Assembly (NCBI GenBank): GCA_041615815.1
Contig: JBFJCP010000001.1
Location: forward strand, 128,001 to 192,000
Reading direction: 5' to 3'
From: Gemmatimonadales bacterium
Lineage (GTDB): Bacteria > Gemmatimonadota > Gemmatimonadetes > Gemmatimonadales > GWC2-71-9
Length of the DNA stretch: 64,000 nt
Below are positions 9,273-20,128 of this stretch, piece after piece (the stretch's first letter is position 1; each line of letters begins with the position of its first letter). The notes below the pieces were generated by a model. That model saw only the letters and a list, made by a program, of their open reading frames with translations. It ran no database searches and was not told the DNA's origin. Both the position numbers and the translations under genes were made by a program.

Positions 9273-9644
9273 TCACGCCGGGGGGGAGCCCGCTGCCCGT
9301 GTATCCTTCAGAAAGGCCCGGGCCAGCGCCGCAAGGTGTTCGGAGTCCGTCCGTGCGACGAAATCCTGCAGTTGCCTCGTTTGACCCCAACGTCCAAGTG
9401 TCTGGATGGCATGAGCCCGAAGCGTATCGTGTGGTGATGCGGCATGGTGGTGTCCAGGATCATCTTCGTGTAGCTCGACCTCGCGGTCTTCGTCCAGAAG
9501 GTCGACGAGCAGATCGATGGATTCCGCGGTGGGCTGGCCACGAGCGATCTTCGTCACGGCATCGCGCATTCGGTTCCACGTTCCAGGCTGAGGGGTGTGA
9601 TCCCCACGAAGGACATCCCGCATAAAGTCGTGTTCGTCTGCCAT
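9273..9644 (-). CDS. hypothetical protein (helical, HEAT-like, His-rich patch)
   Basis: ORF starts 15 bp after the upstream gene's stop; protein-like composition. Confidence 0.55.
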   Translation of the reverse strand: MADEHDFMRDVLRGDHTPQPGTWNRMRDAVTKIARGQPTAESIDLLVDLLDEDREVELHEDDPGHHHAASPHDTLRAHAIQTLGRWGQTRQLQDFVARTDSEHLAALARAFLKDTRAAGSPPA

Positions 9645-9658
9645 GACCGTGACCCTCG

Positions 9659-11125
9659 CTAGGGACCCCAAAAGAACGTGATCGGCCGCGGGTCAGCCAC
9701 GCCCTGGAGCGACAATCCCTCCCCAGGCAGTGCGGTCGGGATACTCCGTGTCGGAACCGTCAGGCCGTTGACACTCGAGTCGACGGATTCGTACTGCCGC
9801 CCGCCGGCGCGCAGGCATCCCATCATGTGCTCCATCACATTCTGAAGGTACTGCTGCTTGAAATCACCCTGCTCGCTGACGGAGATCGAGCGGATACCCC
9901 CTTCCGTCACTTCGGGGCCATCCGTGTATCCCTCGTTCTGATAGTCCGACGGCGGAAGCTTCATGTCCACTACGACACCCCGATCGTTGAAGCAAGTGTC
10001 GTACAGGTACAACCGCCCGTCGTGCTCGAGGAAGTTGATACAATGGCCGCCCCCGTAGTTGAGCTGCTCGACCTGCCGGCCATCCTCCGTCTGGGGAGGC
10101 GCTGACCAGAACCGGTAGCGTTGCTGCTCGACGTCGTGGACGATGGATGTCGGCGTCAGCGGAAGCTCCGTGTCATGAAACTCGGACGCGTCTTCCTCCG
10201 GGACCTTCCGCCCGGTTCCCGGCTTCGCGATCACCACCGCGCACCACATGGCGTCGCCATCGTCTGCGACACGCCACTCGAGGAAAAAGCAGCGGCGATG
10301 GACCGCGACACCTTGGCATCCCGCCATGGCCTGGAACATCTTGTTCCACCCCCCACAGTAGCCGCCCTTTGCGAGAATCATCGCGCCGACGTGCCAAGCC
10401 CGAACCGCGTACTCCATCGAGGTGTTTTTGACGTTCGCAATGATCGCGTCACAGATGTCGACGGGACTGGAGAGTCCGGCGGCCCACTCGCACGTCCATT
10501 CCACGATCGGCAAGTACGTCCACTGCCCAACGGGAGAGGGTGTGTTACCCGGTGGTGCAGGGATGCCAAGCCAACGCCACGTGTCCGTGAGTGGTCCACC
10601 CGTCGTGTATACCGTGTGGGTGGAATCTCCGATGGCATCTGGGCCGCTGTCGCCTAAGGCGGACCACTCCCACCAGAGCTGTGTCTTGCCGATTTCGTTG
10701 GGTAGCGGAGCGTCGAGCGTAAACTCGATGGGCTGGGAGAGTCCTGAGGCATCGAAGGAAAGTGTCACATCCGTGCGCGGCGCCACACCGAGTTTGGATA
10801 CGGGGGGCTGCGCCTGCGGAGAAGGTCTGGCCTGAATGGTGAGCTTGCCACCTCCGCCCCCTTCGCCACGCCGGAATGTCACCTGAATCCGAGGCGTCGT
10901 GTTCTTGACATACGCCGCGGGCTCGGAACGCAGCCCCGCAATCCATTCCGGAGTCTTGCCGAGCAAATGATCGACCGGTGGGCGTTGCCATTTCTTCTGG
11001 TTGACCGTCGTCGCGGCCTTCAAGTCAACCCACGTCATGGGAGCGATCATATCGATCGCCCCAGCGTTGCCGGGAAAGGCGAAATGAATGCTATGCAGCG
11101 CGAGTTGTGGTGTACCAGCCGTCAC
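9659..11125 (-). CDS. hypothetical protein with transglutaminase/papain-like Cys-His-Asp core
   Basis: GGYCGGWNKMFQAMAGCQGV (Cys helix), then GHCINF and LYLYD. Order and spacing resemble the transglutaminase-like superfamily. Confidence 0.6.
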   Translation of the reverse strand: MTAGTPQLALHSIHFAFPGNAGAIDMIAPMTWVDLKAATTVNQKKWQRPPVDHLLGKTPEWIAGLRSEPAAYVKNTTPRIQVTFRRGEGGGGGKLTIQARPSPQAQPPVSKLGVAPRTDVTLSFDASGLSQPIEFTLDAPLPNEIGKTQLWWEWSALGDSGPDAIGDSTHTVYTTGGPLTDTWRWLGIPAPPGNTPSPVGQWTYLPIVEWTCEWAAGLSSPVDICDAIIANVKNTSMEYAVRAWHVGAMILAKGGYCGGWNKMFQAMAGCQGVAVHRRCFFLEWRVADDGDAMWCAVVIAKPGTGRKVPEEDASEFHDTELPLTPTSIVHDVEQQRYRFWSAPPQTEDGRQVEQLNYGGGHCINFLEHDGRLYLYDTCFNDRGVVVDMKLPPSDYQNEGYTDGPEVTEGGIRSISVSEQGDFKQQYLQNVMEHMMGCLRAGGRQYESVDSSVNGLTVPTRSIPTALPGEGLSLQGVADPRPITFFWGP

Positions 11126-11283: not shown

Positions 11284-11323
11284 GCATTTGGGAAACGTTT
11301 CTCTTCACTCAGGGGGATCAGTC

Positions 11324-11491
11324 ATGACCCGCTTCACCGGCAAGGACCTGATGGTCACCGTACTGCCCGAAAGGGGCTTCGCCGCGGACTGCGACAAGGC
11401 CTGCACGAATCCGGGTTCCGAACGTGTTCGACCCTTCCGAGCGGCGGATCTGGAGGCTCTTCGGCGCGACCTTCGGCTCAGGCTCCGCTGA
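11324..11491 (+). CDS. putative RiPP (lanthipeptide-like) precursor peptide, 55 aa
   Basis: AGGGGG RBS then ATG. Sequence MTRFTGKDLMVTVLPERGFAADCDKACTNPGSERVRPFRAADLEALRRDLRLRLR. First gene upstream of the lyase-like and kinase-LanC genes. Confidence 0.75.
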   Translation: MTRFTGKDLMVTVLPERGFAADCDKACTNPGSERVRPFRAADLEALRRDLRLRLR

Positions 11492-11509: not shown

Positions 11510-12754
11510 GTGGGTATTCGGGGGGTGACGGCGATCACCCCCTGGTGCCATGCGAGAACCCAGCGCGTACATGTGTCTGTAGTTCTTCGCCCCGGGTTAT
11601 TGACCCGCGCGTTTCGCGCACCCGCGCAGTACGATCTCGTCTCCGTGGAACGCCTCCCCGTCGACCAGCGACGCATTCTCGATGATCTCATCAGGGTTGG
11701 GTGTCCTGCCGTCCTGCTTCCCCGTGCCGAGAGTGGACACACGATCAAGATGCTGAGCCCGGAGACCACGGAGCTGGTCCGCGCGTTGAAGGAGCCCGGT
11801 CCGCTCCCACCAGGCGCGGTCGATCGCCTGGGCCGGCGGGCGGACGAGACCATTGCTCGGCTGGTCTTGGATGATATGCTCGAGATCGAGACGCACAGCG
11901 GCTTTGTGAGTGGCGTGGCAGCGAGTGAGGTCGTCCTGCAGATCGAGGACCCCGAGGCACCAGAAGGTCTCCTCAGCGAGCTGTCGTGGTCCGCCCTACA
12001 GTTTGGACAGGCGATGGAACTCGGTGAGCCTCTCGCCCTCGCCCGACGGCTGTACGGATACAACGCCGTTCCAGCGTCACCCCGCTACCGCCATCGTTTT
12101 CCAACGACCCGTGCCGTGGCCGAGTTTCTCGGTCTCGACGGCTTTGGCGCGAGCCTGCAACTCGTGGAGTCCGGTAGCGAACGCACCGTCGATTGGCGAC
12201 ACGGTGGCGCGTGGTGGTCCTGGTTGGCCGGCGACGCGGACGCGGTTCCGACCGGTCGACAGGTCTACAAGCTGTATGTGAGTCCTGAAGTCGAACAGTT
12301 GCGGGACGCGTTCCACACCGTCATCGGCACGATCGGGAAGGACGGCCCCTTCTGTTTCAAGGTCGGGCGGGATCTCCTCGGGATCTTGAGACCGGACAAA
12401 CTCGTGGCGTATTTCGCCCACCAGGAGCAACTCCAGGCGGCGTCCGAGAGGCTCAGCGACGAGCTCGACGGCATGCGCCCCCAGGGCGTCCCTTTCACGG
12501 CCGATGCCGGCGCCAACGGCCTGCTGTCGTGGGCCGTCGACCCTCCGCGCGACGACTGGTCACCGCAGTGGTACCGAGACCGGAGCTGGCGGATGTGGAT
12601 CACCCATCTGCTGGCTGCATCGCTGCATGCGGCACGAATGACCGCGCGGGCCCCGCTCCCGCCGTGGCACTTTGCGCAGGTGCGCGTGGCCCTTGAAGGC
12701 GTCAACCCCCAGACATGGGCCCCCACACCGGGGCCGTGGCATCTTGCGGCGTAG
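11510..12754 (+). CDS. HopA1/OspF-like phospho-Ser/Thr lyase (LanY-like) with putative N-terminal RRE
   Basis: YKLYVSP, CFKVG, RPDKLVAYF and GVPFT..GLLSWAVDPP..SWR motifs. Start uncertain (GTG 11510 or TTG 11600). Confidence 0.65.
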   Translation: MGIRGVTAITPWCHARTQRVHVSVVLRPGLLTRAFRAPAQYDLVSVERLPVDQRRILDDLIRVGCPAVLLPRAESGHTIKMLSPETTELVRALKEPGPLPPGAVDRLGRRADETIARLVLDDMLEIETHSGFVSGVAASEVVLQIEDPEAPEGLLSELSWSALQFGQAMELGEPLALARRLYGYNAVPASPRYRHRFPTTRAVAEFLGLDGFGASLQLVESGSERTVDWRHGGAWWSWLAGDADAVPTGRQVYKLYVSPEVEQLRDAFHTVIGTIGKDGPFCFKVGRDLLGILRPDKLVAYFAHQEQLQAASERLSDELDGMRPQGVPFTADAGANGLLSWAVDPPRDDWSPQWYRDRSWRMWITHLLAASLHAARMTARAPLPPWHFAQVRVALEGVNPQTWAPTPGPWHLAA

Positions 12755-12763
12755 GAAGGTGCC

Positions 12764-15166
12764 GTGCTAGTCGCGGAGCCGTTGATCTTGCCGGAGGACG
12801 TTCTGATCGTTCCCGTGGCGGATCTCGCGCCCGAGGCGCGACGGAAACTTCAGAGCGATCTCGGAAGGTTCGCGGTGACGCGGCCCCGCTCCCGAGCACC
12901 CTCGATGGTCGTCGACGAGGGAGCCGCGGATCTGTTGCAGATGTTTCGCTCGGCAAGTGCGATCAACGACGTCATCCTGCGGTACAGTCGCGCGCGGCAG
13001 CTCGATCCCGAAGAGGTACTCGAGGGCGTGTTCCCGATCCTCAGCGGCTGCATCGCTTCGCAGTTTCTCGTTCCAGCCAATACACCGGAAGCGGACCGAA
13101 TTCTCCCGATCCTGAACTTGGACAGTCACGCCGGCCCCTTCGAGTTGATCCGGTGCGTCCAAGTCTTCGAGGACACCGAGGTGTATCAGGTGAAGACGCG
13201 AGCCGGATCGCTGGCGGCGCTGAAACTGTCTCGATCCAAGGGCGTTGCGACGCGGCGGCTGCTCGAGCGTGAGGCCGCGATTCTGAATCGTCTCGATGGG
13301 ACTACGACACCCGCCGTGGTTGGCGCTGGTGCCGTGCATGACCACCCGTATTTGGCCATAGAATGGCGGAGTGGGGTATCGGCACTCGTTGCGGCCCACG
13401 AATACCGCAACGACCCGCCGAAGTACCGGTCAGACCTCTTGATGCGTCTGTGCCACGGCGTCCTTCGCGCCTACGAACATGTGCACCGGCAGGGCGTCGT
13501 GCATGCCGACGTCCATCCGGGGAACATCATGATCGGACCGGACGGACGCGTCACCCTGCTCGATTTCGGGCTCGCACGAGCGGATGACGGTCCTCCCCAG
13601 TGGCGCACCGCTCCGCGCGGTGGCGTGGCGCCCTTTTACGAGCCTGAATTTGCCAACGCGCGGCTCGCCGGCGGCACGCTTCCGCAGGCCACATTCGTGG
13701 GCGAGCAATACGTGCTCGCGGCGTTGCTCTATCTGCTCCTCACGGGCCACCACTACGTGGATTTCTCGCTGACCGCTGACGAAGCGTTTGCACAGATTGC
13801 CCGGCAGAATCCCTTGCCTTTTTCGGTGCAGGGGGTTCCGCCATGGCCAGACGTGGAGCGGGTGCTGAGCGCGGCCTTGGCCAAGGAGCCGCGCGCACGG
13901 TTTCCCACGGTACAGGCCTTTGCCGCGGCGCTGCGTGGGGCGATGGATGCGGCCGCTCCGATCGCACCCGTCCCCAGTCCAGCTCGGCGAAGCCCCACCG
14001 ACGTGTTACTCGATCGCGTCGCCCGGAAGCTGGACCCGGCAGCCAAGCCGTATGCGCGCGGTCTTCAGGCGCCCCCGCAGGCATCCATCACGTACGGAGC
14101 AAGCGGGTTGGCCATTGCGGCGTACCGCTTGGCATGCATCCGATCGGATCCTCGAGCGCTCGCGGTAGCCGATGCCTGGCACACGCGGGCGGTGAACGAC
14201 ATGCGCTCCAGCCGGGCGTTTTACAACGCAGCCATCGGCGTCACGCGGGAAATCGTTGGCGAGACGTCGCCGTATCATACGGCGAGCGGCGTGCACGCTG
14301 CCGGGGTCTTGATCGGTGTGCTCCGGGGAGATGTGGCCGCAGTCCACGAAAGCGTAAGAGGTTTTGTCAGTGCGTCCGAACCGCTCGCCGCCCGTATCGA
14401 CCTGACGCTGGGGCGCGCGGGCACCTTGCTGGCGTGCAGCCTCTTGCTCGATGCACTGCCGCCCGAGTTCGCGGACGAGCGCACCCTTATGATGCACTTG
14501 GGAGGCCGAACCGCACGGACCATTCGCGAAAGCCTCGCGTCGTATGGGCCCATTCCTGAGTGTGTTCAGCTGCGCAGCCTTGGGATGGCGCATGGGTGGG
14601 CGGGTGTCCTCTTCAGTCTGCTGCGGTGGTATCGGGTATCTTCCGCTGGCCCGCCCCCCGAATTCGAGGCTTGGCTCTCCGAGCTTGCGGCGCAGGGGGA
14701 ATTGGCGGGACGGGGAATGCGTTGGCGCATGCGGACCGAGGGCCCGGATCTGGATCACCGTTCGTATATGAACGGGTGGTGTAATGGATCGGCTGGCCAC
14801 CTCTATCTGTGGACGCTGGCTCACCGCATGTTCGGTGTCGACGAGCACGCGGCGTTGGCCGAGCAAGTGGCGTGGAACGTTTGGGAGGAGCGCGGGTCGA
14901 TACCGACGCTCTGCTGCGGATTGGGAGGACAGGCGTACGCACTCCTCAAGTACTACCAGCATACCGGCGACCGAAGATGGTTGGTGAAGGCGCAGCACTT
15001 AGCGAGCATGGCGGCTGAGGAGTGCTTGAAGGAACAGGCGGTACCGTGGGAACCGTACCGCATGAGCCTGTTCAAAGGCGAGGTCGGAGTCGCCGTGTTG
15101 GCGGCGGATATATCACGCCCCGAAGGGGCGTCGATGCCGTTCTTTGACGAGGAGGGATGGTCCTAG
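12764..15166 (+). CDS. RRE + Ser/Thr kinase + LanC-like cyclase fusion (lanthionine synthetase lacking a lyase domain)
   Basis: Kinase motifs AALK, HADVHPGN and DFG. LanC motifs YGASG, LGRAG, GMAHG, WCNG, LCCG and SLFKG. AGGAAGG RBS. Confidence 0.85.
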   Translation: MLVAEPLILPEDVLIVPVADLAPEARRKLQSDLGRFAVTRPRSRAPSMVVDEGAADLLQMFRSASAINDVILRYSRARQLDPEEVLEGVFPILSGCIASQFLVPANTPEADRILPILNLDSHAGPFELIRCVQVFEDTEVYQVKTRAGSLAALKLSRSKGVATRRLLEREAAILNRLDGTTTPAVVGAGAVHDHPYLAIEWRSGVSALVAAHEYRNDPPKYRSDLLMRLCHGVLRAYEHVHRQGVVHADVHPGNIMIGPDGRVTLLDFGLARADDGPPQWRTAPRGGVAPFYEPEFANARLAGGTLPQATFVGEQYVLAALLYLLLTGHHYVDFSLTADEAFAQIARQNPLPFSVQGVPPWPDVERVLSAALAKEPRARFPTVQAFAAALRGAMDAAAPIAPVPSPARRSPTDVLLDRVARKLDPAAKPYARGLQAPPQASITYGASGLAIAAYRLACIRSDPRALAVADAWHTRAVNDMRSSRAFYNAAIGVTREIVGETSPYHTASGVHAAGVLIGVLRGDVAAVHESVRGFVSASEPLAARIDLTLGRAGTLLACSLLLDALPPEFADERTLMMHLGGRTARTIRESLASYGPIPECVQLRSLGMAHGWAGVLFSLLRWYRVSSAGPPPEFEAWLSELAAQGELAGRGMRWRMRTEGPDLDHRSYMNGWCNGSAGHLYLWTLAHRMFGVDEHAALAEQVAWNVWEERGSIPTLCCGLGGQAYALLKYYQHTGDRRWLVKAQHLASMAAEECLKEQAVPWEPYRMSLFKGEVGVAVLAADISRPEGASMPFFDEEGWS

Positions 15167-15310: not shown

Positions 15311-18280
15311 ATGCTCGAAACACTCCGAACGGCGCTGAAGGGTCGCTACGAAGTCGATCGCGAGCTTGGTCGCGGCGGCATGGCCACGGTCTTTTTGGCC
15401 AAGGACCTGCGGCACGACCGACCGGTGGCCATCAAAGTGCTGCGGAGCGAACTCGCGGCGGCGTTGGGTCCAGAGCGGTTCCAACAAGAAATACGAGTTG
15501 CTGCCGGGTTGTCCCACCCCAATATCCTTGCGCTGTACGACTCGGGGGAGGCCAACGGTCTCCTTTACTACGTGATGCCGTTCGTCGAAGGGGAAAGCCT
15601 CGGCGACCGGTTGGCCCGCGAGACCCAACTGTCGATCGACGAGGCGCTGGCGATCACGCGGCAGGTCGCGCAAGCGCTGCACTACGCGCACGAGCGTGGG
15701 ATCGTTCACCGGGACGTCAAGCCGGACAACATCATGCTGCAGGGCGATCAGGCTCTCGTCGCGGACTTTGGCATTGCCCGAGCCGTCGACTCCCTGTCTC
15801 AGACGCGTCTCACGTCGACCGGCATCGTGATGGGCACGCCCGCGTACATGAGCCCGGAACAAGCAGCCGCGGAGAGCGACCTCGATGCCCGCAGCGACGT
15901 GTACAGTCTGGCCTGTGTGCTGTACGAGATGCTGAGCGGGGAAACACCGTTCCGGGGGACAACCGCACGGGCGATGCTCGCGCGGCATGCAGTGGAGCCG
16001 CCGCCGAGTGTTCGCGTGGTCCGCCCCACAGTCCCGGACGCCGTACAGTTCGCGATCGTCAAAGCGATGGCCAAGCTGCCGGCAGACCGATACGCGACGG
16101 CGTACGAGTTTGCGGAAGCGTTGGCCGGACAGACGGGATCGTATGCCGTCAGCGGTCCCCGCCGTCGCGTCCCGAAGCGTATCGTGGCGAGTGCGGCCGC
16201 GGCGGCGCTGGCCGTCATCGCCATCACCACCGTCTTGATCACGGGTCGCAGCGCCGACGTCCCCCCGTCGGATTCCGACCTGATCGCCGTCATGCCATTC
16301 CAGACAGCGAGCGCGCTCGATCCGTCGCTCGGCGCACTCAGCGAAGGGATGCTCGAGTTGTTCTACACACGACTGGGTGGGGGAGGAGCGCTGCGTGCCG
16401 TTTCTCCCAGCAAAGCGCTCAGCGCGTTCCGTCGAGCCTTGGAGGCAGCGGATGAGGAACCGGAGGAGGCCGGCTTGCGCGCCGCCGCCGAGCTCGGTGC
16501 CGGGCGGCTGCTGACCGGTAACATCTCGAGCATCGGTGGGCGGCTGTTTCTTCGTGCCTCGTTGGTCGCTGTCCCAAGCGGCGAGCACATGATCGACGTG
16601 CAGGCAAACGGTGTCCCTGACAGTCTCCTCGCCCTCGTCGACCAACTTGCTGCGAGACTGCTCGTGCGGAGTGCTGGCGAATCCGATGTTCTGCTCAGTC
16701 AGCTGCTCACGACCGATCTGGGCGCGCTGCAGGATTACCTCGATGGTCAAGCGGCCTATAACCGCGGCGAGTACGTGCGAGCAGTGAGCTCGTATCGCGA
16801 TGCCATGGCCAAGGATTCCACATTCGCGCTGGCGGCGCTCGGCATGGCCGCAGCGGAAGATTTTCTTCCCGTCCTGCAGGCACAGGAAGGGCTGCCGCTC
16901 GCGTGGAGAGCGCGCGAGCGGCTGGGAGCCCGCGACGCCGCCTATCTGACGGCGCTCGCTGGGCCCCGCTACCCGGCGCACTCGTCGTTCGCGGAACAGA
17001 TCACGGCCTGGCAGCAGGCCACCCATCTACTCGCGGACCGGAAAGAACCCTGGTATCAAATGGGCAATCTGCTCCTCGAGTGGGGGGCGGCGGTGGGCCT
17101 GACGGACGCGCAGGAGCGGGCCCAAGAGGCTCTCGAACAGGCGGTGGAGCTCGACTCCGCGTTTACGCCGGCGCTGGGTCATCTGTTGGAGATCGCCGCC
17201 CGCCGCGGCGACACGGCGGCCGTGCGACGCATCGCACCGCGTGTGCTCGCCGGCGGGCACGGGGATCTGGACGACTACTATCGGTGGCGGGTCGCGCTGG
17301 CGCTGGGAGACTCTGCCACCCTCCGTGGCTTGCGCCTTCGGTTCGCCGAACTCGAACCTCGCGCCCTCGATCGCATTCTCGGGGTGGCTCAACTGGATGG
17401 TGTGGGCCTCGAAGATGCGCTGCCGGCGGCCGAGAGTTATCGCGCGCAAAGCCGGCGACCCAATGAAGTCCGCTGGGCTTCTGACAAGCTTCGGTCCTTG
17501 GCCCTGAATCGCGGCAGGCCACGGGAAGCCATGAAGTATGACAGCCTGATCGAGGAGATCCGAGTGCCCGAATGGGACCGCGGCCCGTTCGTCCAAGTGA
17601 TCCACGCCCTGTATTGGGGAGGCGACACCGCGCGGGCGCGGGCGAACGTCGAGCGGCGGGCTCCCATTGCCGACGCGGTTCAGGAACCGCGCGATCCGTT
17701 CGCACGAGAGTACTTCGACATTTGCGCCGTGAACCTCTGGCGCGTGTCACGGGGGGACCTGACCCCGGTCAGGCGGAGCATTCGTCGCTTGGTCGACGCG
17801 ATGACGGTGATGGACACGATGCCGCGGCAGCGCGGAGGACCACGTGGTGACCTCCAGATGGGCCATATCCCGATATGTTCTGCCCTGCTGGATGCCCAAC
17901 TGGCAGCGGCCGAGCGCTCGGATCGCGCGCCTGCAGCGCTCGCCCACCTGGATTCCCTGATGCGCTCCGGGCCCCAGGCCGTGAGTTGGATCACGGTCGC
18001 CGCGCACCTGTCCACCGCCTGGCTGTTCGAAGCACGCGGGGATATCCGGGCCGCACTGGCAGCCGTTCGGCGGCGTTCGTACCAGTTCGATCGGGGGACG
18101 ATCGGCCTCTCGACCTTCCTGCGCGAGGAAGGACGGTTGGCCGCGATGGTCGGCGACACGGCCGCGGCCATCCGCGCGTACGATCACTATCTCAGGTTAC
18201 GGGAGAAGCACGAACCGGCGGTGGCCCACGAGGTCGCGCAGGTGCGACAGGAATTGGCGGGACTGGTCCGCGAGCCCTAG
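15311..18280 (+). CDS. Hanks-type Ser/Thr protein kinase with TM helix and TolB-N/TPR-like extracytoplasmic region
   Basis: LGRGGMATV, AIK, HRDVKPDN, DFGIA and GTPAYMSPEQ; hydrophobic segment near aa 290-310; helical repeats follow. Confidence 0.9.
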   Translation: MLETLRTALKGRYEVDRELGRGGMATVFLAKDLRHDRPVAIKVLRSELAAALGPERFQQEIRVAAGLSHPNILALYDSGEANGLLYYVMPFVEGESLGDRLARETQLSIDEALAITRQVAQALHYAHERGIVHRDVKPDNIMLQGDQALVADFGIARAVDSLSQTRLTSTGIVMGTPAYMSPEQAAAESDLDARSDVYSLACVLYEMLSGETPFRGTTARAMLARHAVEPPPSVRVVRPTVPDAVQFAIVKAMAKLPADRYATAYEFAEALAGQTGSYAVSGPRRRVPKRIVASAAAAALAVIAITTVLITGRSADVPPSDSDLIAVMPFQTASALDPSLGALSEGMLELFYTRLGGGGALRAVSPSKALSAFRRALEAADEEPEEAGLRAAAELGAGRLLTGNISSIGGRLFLRASLVAVPSGEHMIDVQANGVPDSLLALVDQLAARLLVRSAGESDVLLSQLLTTDLGALQDYLDGQAAYNRGEYVRAVSSYRDAMAKDSTFALAALGMAAAEDFLPVLQAQEGLPLAWRARERLGARDAAYLTALAGPRYPAHSSFAEQITAWQQATHLLADRKEPWYQMGNLLLEWGAAVGLTDAQERAQEALEQAVELDSAFTPALGHLLEIAARRGDTAAVRRIAPRVLAGGHGDLDDYYRWRVALALGDSATLRGLRLRFAELEPRALDRILGVAQLDGVGLEDALPAAESYRAQSRRPNEVRWASDKLRSLALNRGRPREAMKYDSLIEEIRVPEWDRGPFVQVIHALYWGGDTARARANVERRAPIADAVQEPRDPFAREYFDICAVNLWRVSRGDLTPVRRSIRRLVDAMTVMDTMPRQRGGPRGDLQMGHIPICSALLDAQLAAAERSDRAPAALAHLDSLMRSGPQAVSWITVAAHLSTAWLFEARGDIRAALAAVRRRSYQFDRGTIGLSTFLREEGRLAAMVGDTAAAIRAYDHYLRLREKHEPAVAHEVAQVRQELAGLVREP

Positions 18281-18975: not shown

Positions 18976-19428
18976 TCAGCTCGCGTGTTCTAGGAGGTCC
19001 AGTTGGCGCATGACGGCGATCTTGATCTCGGGTGCAGCGGCCTGGAGGCCTTTTCGGAGTAGCAGGGCCGTGGTGGCGTCGAACGTGGGTGCCAGGTGCG
19101 CCTGTGCTGCCAGCTTGATCTTCTCTGCCAGTTCGGCGGGGATCTGGACAGAGACCATGCGGCGCTCTGCGGCTGCAGGAACGCTCTTGGGCTTCCAGCT
19201 CGGCAGACCAATCCGCCTCCCGTTTGGCGTGGACAGAAAGGCCAGCTGGGGCCGGTTGTACGTCCCACTCCGGATGTTTTTCTCGATGGTGGAGGCAATG
19301 GACAGCTCCGGATCGGCAGCATTGCTCGCCACCATCCCGCGCTCCAAGGCACGCCGTCCCAGCTCGCGGGCGGAAAGCGGACGCCCTTCCTCCATCAGTA
19401 GTCGATACGCAGCCTCGTGCACCTTCAC
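18976..19428 (-). CDS. HARE-HTH (HB1/ASXL/restriction endonuclease) winged-helix protein with possible C-terminal ribbon-helix-helix
   Basis: GTG start; KVHEAAYRLLMEEGRPLSARELGRRALERGMV...PELSIASTI pattern; tail RMVSVQIPAELAEKIKLAA. Confidence 0.65.
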   Translation of the reverse strand: MKVHEAAYRLLMEEGRPLSARELGRRALERGMVASNAADPELSIASTIEKNIRSGTYNRPQLAFLSTPNGRRIGLPSWKPKSVPAAAERRMVSVQIPAELAEKIKLAAQAHLAPTFDATTALLLRKGLQAAAPEIKIAVMRQLDLLEHAS

Positions 19429-19702
19429 GGTCGTGCCTGCTTTCCGCGGTTTCCTGCAGAAAAGAAAACAAGAAGGACCAGGAAAAGTGCGGATCGCAGC
19501 AGAAAAATCAAGAAAGAAAAGGAAAGACCATCCTGTCTTCGCCTTTTCATCGGGCCGGGGGTGCTGGCGGGTAACGACCGGAGAGAAGACGCTACGAACG
19601 GCGTGGGCGCAACCGGAGCACGCGGTCAGGGAATTGGGTGACATGGGTGGCGTCAGGTGCACCGGGTAGGTGCCGCGGCATGAAGCAGCCACGTGCCACA
19701 GC

Positions 19703-20128
19703 CTAGGGAGGCGGAACCACCACCCAGCTTCCGGGCCGGAATTTGAAGTCGAGGAGGCCCACCGCGAGACCAATACCGGCACCAGCCGCGAGCGAGATCA
19801 CCACATCCTCGGTGCTGGCATCGTCCGAGGCGAGGGCTGCCGTGAGCGTGCCGGCGGCGAGCCCGCCCAGGAGCCATGTTCCCAGCACCCATTGCGGTCG
19901 CCGGCGCTCGAATCGCTCGAGCCGCTCGACCACGCGACGATTGAAGACCTCGACCCCCTGAGGTTCTCCCAGGACGAACTCTTGGTCGTTCGCGGCCAGG
20001 ATCCGGCCGTGGCGCCAGGCGGAATCGGGGGACACGCGGACGCGCACACTGTCTCCCGGCGTCTGGGCCCGCGCGGGGCCCGCTGCCAGGATCGATCCGA
20101 CCAGGGCGAGCGTCAGAATGCGTCTCAT
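19703..20128 (-). CDS. hypothetical secreted/membrane protein with glycine-zipper-like helices
   Basis: Signal peptide MRRILTLALVGSILAAGPARA and two Gly-rich hydrophobic segments. Confidence 0.65.
   Translation of the reverse strand: MRRILTLALVGSILAAGPARAQTPGDSVRVRVSPDSAWRHGRILAANDQEFVLGEPQGVEVFNRRVVERLERFERRRPQWVLGTWLLGGLAAGTLTAALASDDASTEDVVISLAAGAGIGLAVGLLDFKFRPGSWVVVPPP

Follow-up and report, generated by a model that had tools for sequence, protein, structure and literature searches.

We found that a 55-amino-acid peptide encoded in the genome of a Gemmatimonadales bacterium is likely to be the substrate of a split, class IV-like lanthipeptide synthetase, with two overlapping rings in which the Cys would lie N-terminal to its acceptor and with both ends of the peptide probably held by the enzymes. 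The gene lies at 11324..11491 (+) of the window, the 64,000-nucleotide stretch of DNA that we analyzed, directly ahead of genes for a stand-alone lyase and for a kinase fused to a LanC cyclase. In our judgment, it is almost certain that the lyase and kinase-cyclase act on this peptide and very likely that thioether rings form in it. The locus has the general features of a lanthipeptide system, namely, a short precursor with Cys and Ser/Thr in its core beside dehydration and cyclase enzymes. In sequences and structure models, the genes travel together, the ends of the peptide are conserved and its core is variable, and the catalytic residues of the enzymes are intact.

The precursor peptide and its gene

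Translation of 11324..11491 (+) gives a 55-residue peptide with an N-terminal F4-P15 segment (11333..11368, +), followed by D22-C23-D-K-A-C27-T28-N-P-G-S32 and, beyond S32, no Ser, Thr, or Cys. Within the core, C23-S32 (11390..11419, +), the distance from C23 to T28 and from C27 to S32 is five residues (+5), and that from C27 to T28 is one (+1). RGFAAD forms residues 17-22 and RPFRAAD forms residues 36-42, and the follower segment D42-R55 (11447..11488, +), which is conserved in the family, is a predicted helix with L43, L46, L50, and L54. Translation thus bears out the motifs and spacings that the initial annotation gave for this peptide. It had also placed the peptide within a longer open reading frame (ORF), and the ORF list does begin at TTG 11255; close relatives start at the position that corresponds to the ATG, which supports the shorter gene. 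A ribosome-binding-site-like GGGGGA (11312..11317, +) lies 6 nt before this ATG.

Using leader and follower position matrices from which the window peptide had been left out, we scored the 127,498 candidate starts in the genome. The 55-mer scored 47.6 bits and the next best candidate scored 8.1 bits, so the match is not a chance one. A genome-wide look found no second precursor and no second LanC. Between 11000 and 11700, there was no promoter or terminator consensus, and a 10-bp hairpin past the precursor stop (about 11519-11544) was rejected as being within chance (z of -1.0). The hydrophobic moment of the window follower was not above that of shuffles, 23% of which reach the same value. The precursor matched no named family in ESM Atlas, comparison of the precursor region with the DNA of 40 relatives gave zero matches, and a scan of the locus as a single sequence found nothing.

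A three-gene cassette with a patchy distribution

The lyase gene (11510..12754, +; 414 aa, start codon uncertain) is found 19 bases past the precursor and is followed by the gene for the 800-aa kinase-cyclase (12764..15166, +). Loci for comparison were chosen by the lyase alone; from a search with a lyase alignment, we kept the best 80 of 415 matches in GTDB contigs and the best 80 of at least 538 in metagenomes, the two sets partly overlapping. The kinase-cyclase directly follows the lyase in all 152 loci with at least 300 bases downstream, and a precursor lies upstream of the lyase in 141 of the 145 loci with at least 700 bases upstream (135 found by profile and 6 by motif; none in the remaining 4). 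The order peptide, stand-alone lyase, and kinase-LanC fusion therefore defines a three-gene cassette in which lyase and kinase-cyclase have ORFs of their own, both in the window and in the other loci examined. A 1138-aa open frame in genome G211, considered as a natural lyase-kinase-cyclase fusion, was discarded since the genes are in different frames.

At 50% identity, the clusters matched by the lyase profile number at least 1,166 (E up to 1e-30), and the best matches include members from Acidobacteriota, Gemmatimonadota, Chloroflexota, Eremiobacterota, Planctomycetota, Bacillus, Amaricoccus (among them the cultured Amaricoccus macauensis DSM 101730, L048), and Nitrososphaerales archaea. Judged by its closest homologues, the window probably comes from a member of Gemmatimonadota. 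The distribution is patchy, with the family present in 11 of 301 genomes of the order to which the window belongs. Transposase or resolvase genes flank the cassette in four loci (L010, L034, L047, and L052), and these flanking genes together with the patchy distribution suggest that the cassette is mobile.

The lyase and the kinase-cyclase

The window lyase had no Pfam or NCBIfam match, a PDB sequence search with it gave no match, and 1 of 47 family members matched the Pfam HopA1 family PF17914, with an E value of 0.23. The lyase model (pLDDT of 87) has the HopA1/LanY fold of pSer/pThr lyases, matching HopA1 (Z of 15.6, root mean square deviation [rmsd] of 4.0, 228 residues aligned), the class V lyase LxmY (Z of 15.4, rmsd of 3.8, 232 aligned), and CuvL (Z of 14.0, rmsd of 3.6, 165 aligned), and it also resembles the lyase domains of CuvL and ThurKC, as well as SpvC/OspF. 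An N-terminal RRE-like domain covers about residues 29-131, which align with MibB 191-287 (Z of 5.6) and TigE 4-86 (Z of 5.4), N-terminal-type domains that we take to be RREs; these are middling scores, under a Z of 8. In the alignment of 47 lyase homologues, K254, K284, and R294 are invariant and Y301 is nearly so. The K284-x9-R294-x6-Y301 spacing is identical to that of K219/R229/Y236 in CaoY, where K219 and R229 matter by mutation according to the available text of PMC9486802.

Pfam matches, alignment, and a structure model divide the kinase-cyclase into an RRE-like domain, a Hanks-type Ser/Thr kinase (K154, D249, N254, and D267), and a LanC cyclase (C673, C717, C718, and H610). The kinase and putative Zn-site residues are 97 to 100% conserved in 121 homologues (C673, C717, and C718, 99%; H610, 97%), and from NisC/ProcM we presume that the three Cys are Zn ligands and that H610 is the acid. 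The kinase part matches Pkinase over residues 139-297 (E of 1.8e-13) and APH only over 241-275, and it folds like PknB (Z of 27.7), while the cyclase is LanCL-like by fold. The top whole-protein fold match of the model was class IV CuvL, a wide fold search covered the model beyond its first 115 residues, and the best NCBIfam match was LanL (NF038150), at 149.3 bits against a cutoff of 650. The position of the LanL lyase is occupied by a strand-helix domain of roughly 110 residues that resembles the N-terminal domain of the stand-alone lyase (hhalign E of 1.5e-4, probability of 51%). An RRE is a winged helix with three strands and then three helices; the kinase-cyclase N-terminal domain has the strand-helix order, and 4 of 19 kinase N-terminal domains scanned have weak matches to ThcOx (E of 0.01 to 0.2).

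The precursor family has conserved ends and a variable core

We collected 157 peptides, of which 129 had a full start; 89 remained below about 62% identity, 87 of them with a follower by pattern. Dropping the L034 row, which had a mis-set start, left 86 nonredundant cores for the core statistics. The family leader reads F (95%), x3, D (70%), L (97%), M (67%), x2, V (58%), x, and P (61%), and the follower reads L (88%), xx, L (83%), [KR] (81%), x, Q (78%), L (95%), xxx, and L (81%). The core between these ends is 27 to 178 residues long with a median of 7 Cys (range, 1 to 35), Cys makes up 11.2% of core residues versus 0.2% of leader and follower residues, and Ser plus Thr at least equal Cys in number in 84 of the 86 cores. 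The tripartite precursor proposed in the initial annotation thus recurs across homologues, in which N-terminal F-x3-D-L and C-terminal L-xx-L-[KR]-x-Q-L-xxx-L are kept around a variable core of Cys, Ser, and Thr. The conservation of the ends was partly selected for, because the upstream profile was seeded with the window peptide, but this bias is countered by the presence of a precursor member in nearly all loci even though the loci were chosen by the lyase alone.

Several loci depart from a single short precursor. In L006, L007, L036, L042, L055, and L058, the precursors are 220 to 260 aa long and carry some 30 Cys or more, arranged in periodic CT-x-C or CT-xx-C repeats that would yield ladder-like multiring products. 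The archaeal (Nitrososphaerales) precursors are tandem, with two leader-follower units per ORF, the first lacking Cys (L079:1862-2599 and L080:3235-3972). Two differing precursors stand in tandem ahead of one enzyme pair in L030, L062, L078, L081, L093, L131, L147, and L150, which suggests that the enzymes tolerate varied cores. Near-exact internal repeats, for example, of CTPSP or CYASGGG units, form the cores in L003, L029, L043, L045, L051, L168, and L171, pointing to apparent growth through repeat expansion.

Core spacing supports rings with Cys N-terminal to the acceptor

Among the 86 cores, 733 of 816 Cys have a Ser or Thr at +3 to +5, compared with 357 in shuffles, which supports Cys-first rings, those with Cys N-terminal to the acceptor, throughout the family. 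By offset, an acceptor is found at +4 for 408 Cys, at +1 for 290, at +5 for 193, and at +3 for 169, where shuffles give about 145 at each offset. An acceptor follows the first Cys of the core in 79 of 86 cores and precedes it in 21; downstream, Ser/Thr lies at +4 in 40 of 85 and at +5 in 27 of 85, and upstream, it lies at -3 in 4 of 83, at -4 in 11 of 81, and at -5 in 7 of 81. Offsets of -3 to -5 are also enriched overall (491 versus 355 in shuffles), in long periodic cores, where rings of the canonical direction may therefore still form. Such an excess is what periodic cores would produce. In 58 of 86 cores, acceptors also lie upstream of the last Cys.

Further peptides gave a similar pattern. 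For the 48 of 71 new peptides that could be split by pattern, which come from a search with a related profile and are weighted toward one lineage, 181 of 193 Cys have a downstream acceptor at +3 to +5, versus 56 in shuffles; upstream, there is no excess (51 versus 56), and the first Cys has a downstream acceptor in 44 peptides and an upstream one in 1. In the 6 of 13 held-out locus peptides that could be split, the downstream count is 39 of 45 Cys, versus 21 in shuffles.

The ring direction in the initial annotation, with Cys N-terminal to the dehydro residue, therefore holds as a family-wide sequence rule. Its two rings, C23-T28 (methyllanthionine [MeLan]) and C27-S32 (lanthionine [Lan]), are still predictions; they are the sole pairs in the 55-mer that the +3 to +5 rule allows, but their +5 spacing is not the usual one, as the window peptide has zero pairs at +4, the commonest spacing in the family. 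Pairs at +5 are also found in L064, L009, and, in part, L002, and we favor this ring pattern with modest confidence.

An alternative is that the peptide is modified without these rings, through a link between the adjacent C27 and T28, a single ring, free dehydro residues, or Cys used for a disulfide or metal. Adjacent C-[ST] pairs are enriched (290 of 816, versus 148 in shuffles), C23-x3-C27 could chelate a metal, and some cores have one or very few Cys. The +3 to +5 rule, however, accounts for about 90% of Cys, the Zn site of the cyclase is intact, odd Cys counts (44 of 86 cores) are as common as even ones, and cores of the CP[QE]DT type have no +1 enrichment (15 of 193 versus 22), and we consider this alternative improbable.

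Proposed modification and fate of the peptide ends

By class III-V chemistry, the kinase would phosphorylate T28 and S32, the separate lyase would convert them to Dhb28 and Dha32 by eliminating the phosphate, and C23 and C27 would then be added to the dehydro residues by the Zn cyclase. The N-terminal F-x3-D-L-M-x-V would bind an RRE-like domain as a strand, and the C-terminal Leu helix would dock on the kinase or a kinase-lyase surface, in the role of the amphipathic leader helix of classes III and IV. ThurKC offers a precedent, since an amphipathic leader helix sits between the kinase and the lyase there (PMC10604976, available sections). Anchoring of the peptide from its C side could be the source of the reversed ring direction. 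We rate enzyme docking as the function of the follower at slightly better than even. Against a role in docking only, followers reach about 60 residues, and in 40 of 87 members a P-x-[TS] motif opens a predicted second helix, more than docking needs.

The initial annotation had proposed cleavage at the repeated AA/D sites that bracket the core, and the family does not sustain this. Of 86 cores, 3 have AA[DE] ahead of their first Cys and 2 have it at the follower junction; the window peptide is the one core of 86 with both, so the bracketing looks like chance. The D of the second AAD is the residue immediately ahead of the conserved helix. A cut after D22 is possible by analogy with one class III protease that cuts after QAAD (PMC10885120, available text). 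When 1,482 ORFs from the flanks (up to 4 kb upstream and some 1.5 kb past the cyclase) were clustered, no protease or exporter family recurred except MacB/FtsX-type permeases in 8 loci. In a Pfam scan of 134 of 183 flanking ORFs, there were no C39 or S9 domains and scattered S8 (2), M64 (2, one lineage), trypsin (1), and CHAT (1) domains. The window genome has one C39 domain, on a different contig from the cassette.

One or both ends may be trimmed by a protease encoded elsewhere or, in loci with short precursors, by a Cys-His-Asp protein encoded divergently from the precursor. In the window, this 488-aa protein (9659..11125, -), a member of an unannotated family, is transglutaminase/papain-like, with Cys257-His361-Asp376 conserved in an alignment of homologues. 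Besides the window, five short-precursor loci have the gene next to the cassette, and the divergent arrangement is recorded for six short-precursor loci (L064, L108, L164/L173, L165/L176, L167/L174, and L175); the gene is present in 5 of 301 genomes of the order, beside the cassette in 4 of them. The protein is thus a candidate protease for the short-precursor subgroup only. In G279, the gene is present with no cassette seen. The 132-aa gene that follows it in the window (9273-9671, weak HEAT match) also has a match in L064. We put removal of both ends at a little below an even chance.

The same rings could instead be made in a product that keeps its C-terminal helix or helical hairpin, an uncut stapled mini-protein in which the helix would serve assembly or target binding, possibly with the neighboring Ser/Thr kinases. 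The long follower of 40 of 87 members agrees with such a product, as do the lack of a conserved cut motif on either side of the core and of a protease or exporter conserved across the family, but short members retain just the first 14 to 16 follower residues, and class III/IV clusters commonly rely on proteases encoded elsewhere (available text of PMC10885120). Of 55 fully flanked GTDB loci, 26 have flanking PknB-like kinases with PD40 or TPR-like domains, often on both sides of the cassette in Thermoanaerobaculia, compared with 7.6% of random, somewhat shorter stretches, a control made in the window genome alone. These neighbors are inherited within a few lineages, however, so the 26 loci are not independent. 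A kept helix is the main alternative, but it seems unlikely to us.

In the window, the corresponding gene (15311..18280, +) encodes a PknB-like Ser/Thr kinase that contains a hydrophobic stretch, is TPR-like in its C-terminal region, and has a below-cutoff match to TIGR04510, "peptide modification system cyclase." It is a possible partner of the cassette, in a genome with 58 kinase-domain matches. A small protein with a HARE-HTH domain (PF05066) is encoded at 18976-19782 (-).

Kinase neighbors, the OspF/SpvC fold of the lyase, and the LanCL-like cyclase would also fit a signaling switch in which the lyase strips phosphate from the neighboring Ser/Thr kinases, as OspF does, and the cyclase couples the peptide Cys to the dehydro residues so formed, as LanCL couples glutathione. 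The cassette has its own kinase, though, each Cys has a Ser/Thr of the peptide itself at a fixed spacing, and no such kinase is seen in the examined flanks of Bacillus, Chloroflexota, and archaeal loci. We regard this switch as very improbable, and modification of the 55-mer by the cassette as the preferred reading.

Relationship to known lanthipeptide classes

The cassette would work like a split class IV enzyme or like a class Vb set whose kinase and cyclase are fused. It lacks defining features of class IV, class Va, and class V generally. With class IV LanL (CuvL, PDB 8CAV/8CAR) it shares a Hanks-type kinase followed by a Zn-type LanC, with the Zn-binding cyclase residues as assigned above, and an OspF-fold lyase. 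In LanL, however, lyase, kinase, and cyclase form one polypeptide, whereas the cassette lyase has its own gene, both cassette enzymes open with an RRE-like domain, the precursor has a conserved C-terminal follower, and the LanL score is 149 bits against the cutoff of 650. Class II-V enzymes are described as having no identifiable RRE in the available sections of PMC10604976, where lanthipeptide precursors are a leader plus a C-terminal core.

A stand-alone HopA1-like lyase, recognized here by fold and catalytic spacing without reaching PF17914 itself, is a class V feature. The class V kinase LanK, in contrast, is a separate APH-family protein, and the cassette kinase is Hanks-type and fused to LanC. 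Class Vb (LanK, LanY, and LanC; product mSmoA) shares the stand-alone LanY-fold lyase, a LanC, and overlapping rings, which are predicted in the cassette, but its LanC is a dedicated protein beside LanK and LanY. In addition, mSmoA ends in a C-terminal Lan (PMC11186320 and PMC12328550, available portions), compared with a Cys-free helix past the cassette core. Class Va (cacaoidin, lexapeptide, pristinin, and triantimycin) shares the LanY fold, as in the LxmY match at a Z of 15.4, and the CaoY catalytic spacing. Unlike class Va, the cassette has a LanC and lacks a decarboxylase, LanX, and a methyltransferase; genes for LanD or LanX do not recur in the flanks, and the C-terminal AviMeCys of class Va has no counterpart in the window peptide, which lacks Cys after residue 27.

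Individual rings with Cys N-terminal to the dehydro residue occur in cinnamycin/duramycin and in ring A of mersacidin, which are class II products with mixed ring directions; in the cassette family, by comparison, the Cys-first direction appears to be a family-wide rule. Follower peptides are found in cyanobactins. A conserved C-terminal segment beyond the core is also shared with bottromycin (PMC10885120, available text), but the chemistry of these follower-containing peptides is different, and bottromycin lacks a leader, while the cassette precursors conserve both ends.

In the literature covered, which took in few subscription papers, we found no description of the cassette or of a lanthipeptide family with both leader and follower; the cluster list of Pei et al. 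2022 may include such loci. The available portions of PMC7794033, PMC12710340, PMC11186320, PMC12328550, PMC11855644, and PMC10373908 do not describe the cassette, and a survey of HopA1 proteins, in its available text, reports HopA1 near or fused to LanC and not the arrangement of peptide, lyase, and kinase-LanC (PMC8153245). A more far-reaching proposal is a new lanthipeptide class with a two-protein synthetase, an RRE in each half, an N-strand and C-helix clamp on the precursor, Cys-first rings in cores with up to 35 Cys, and an uncut stapled product that signals via adjacent Ser/Thr receptor kinases and is not an exported antibiotic; as a whole, this proposal is speculative and rather unlikely.

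The chemistry of the cassette is probably familiar, and it is the substrate logic that appears new: both ends seem to be used, each enzyme has an RRE-like domain, and the rings would run in the reverse direction. The family is easily missed in genome mining, since the lyase and the precursors have no meaningful Pfam or NCBIfam match. The window 55-mer, with two Cys and two core acceptors, is near the simplest test case of the family. If the proposed reading is true, the cassette would provide a tolerant enzyme with which long peptides could be stapled, and the determinants of ring direction could be tested directly.
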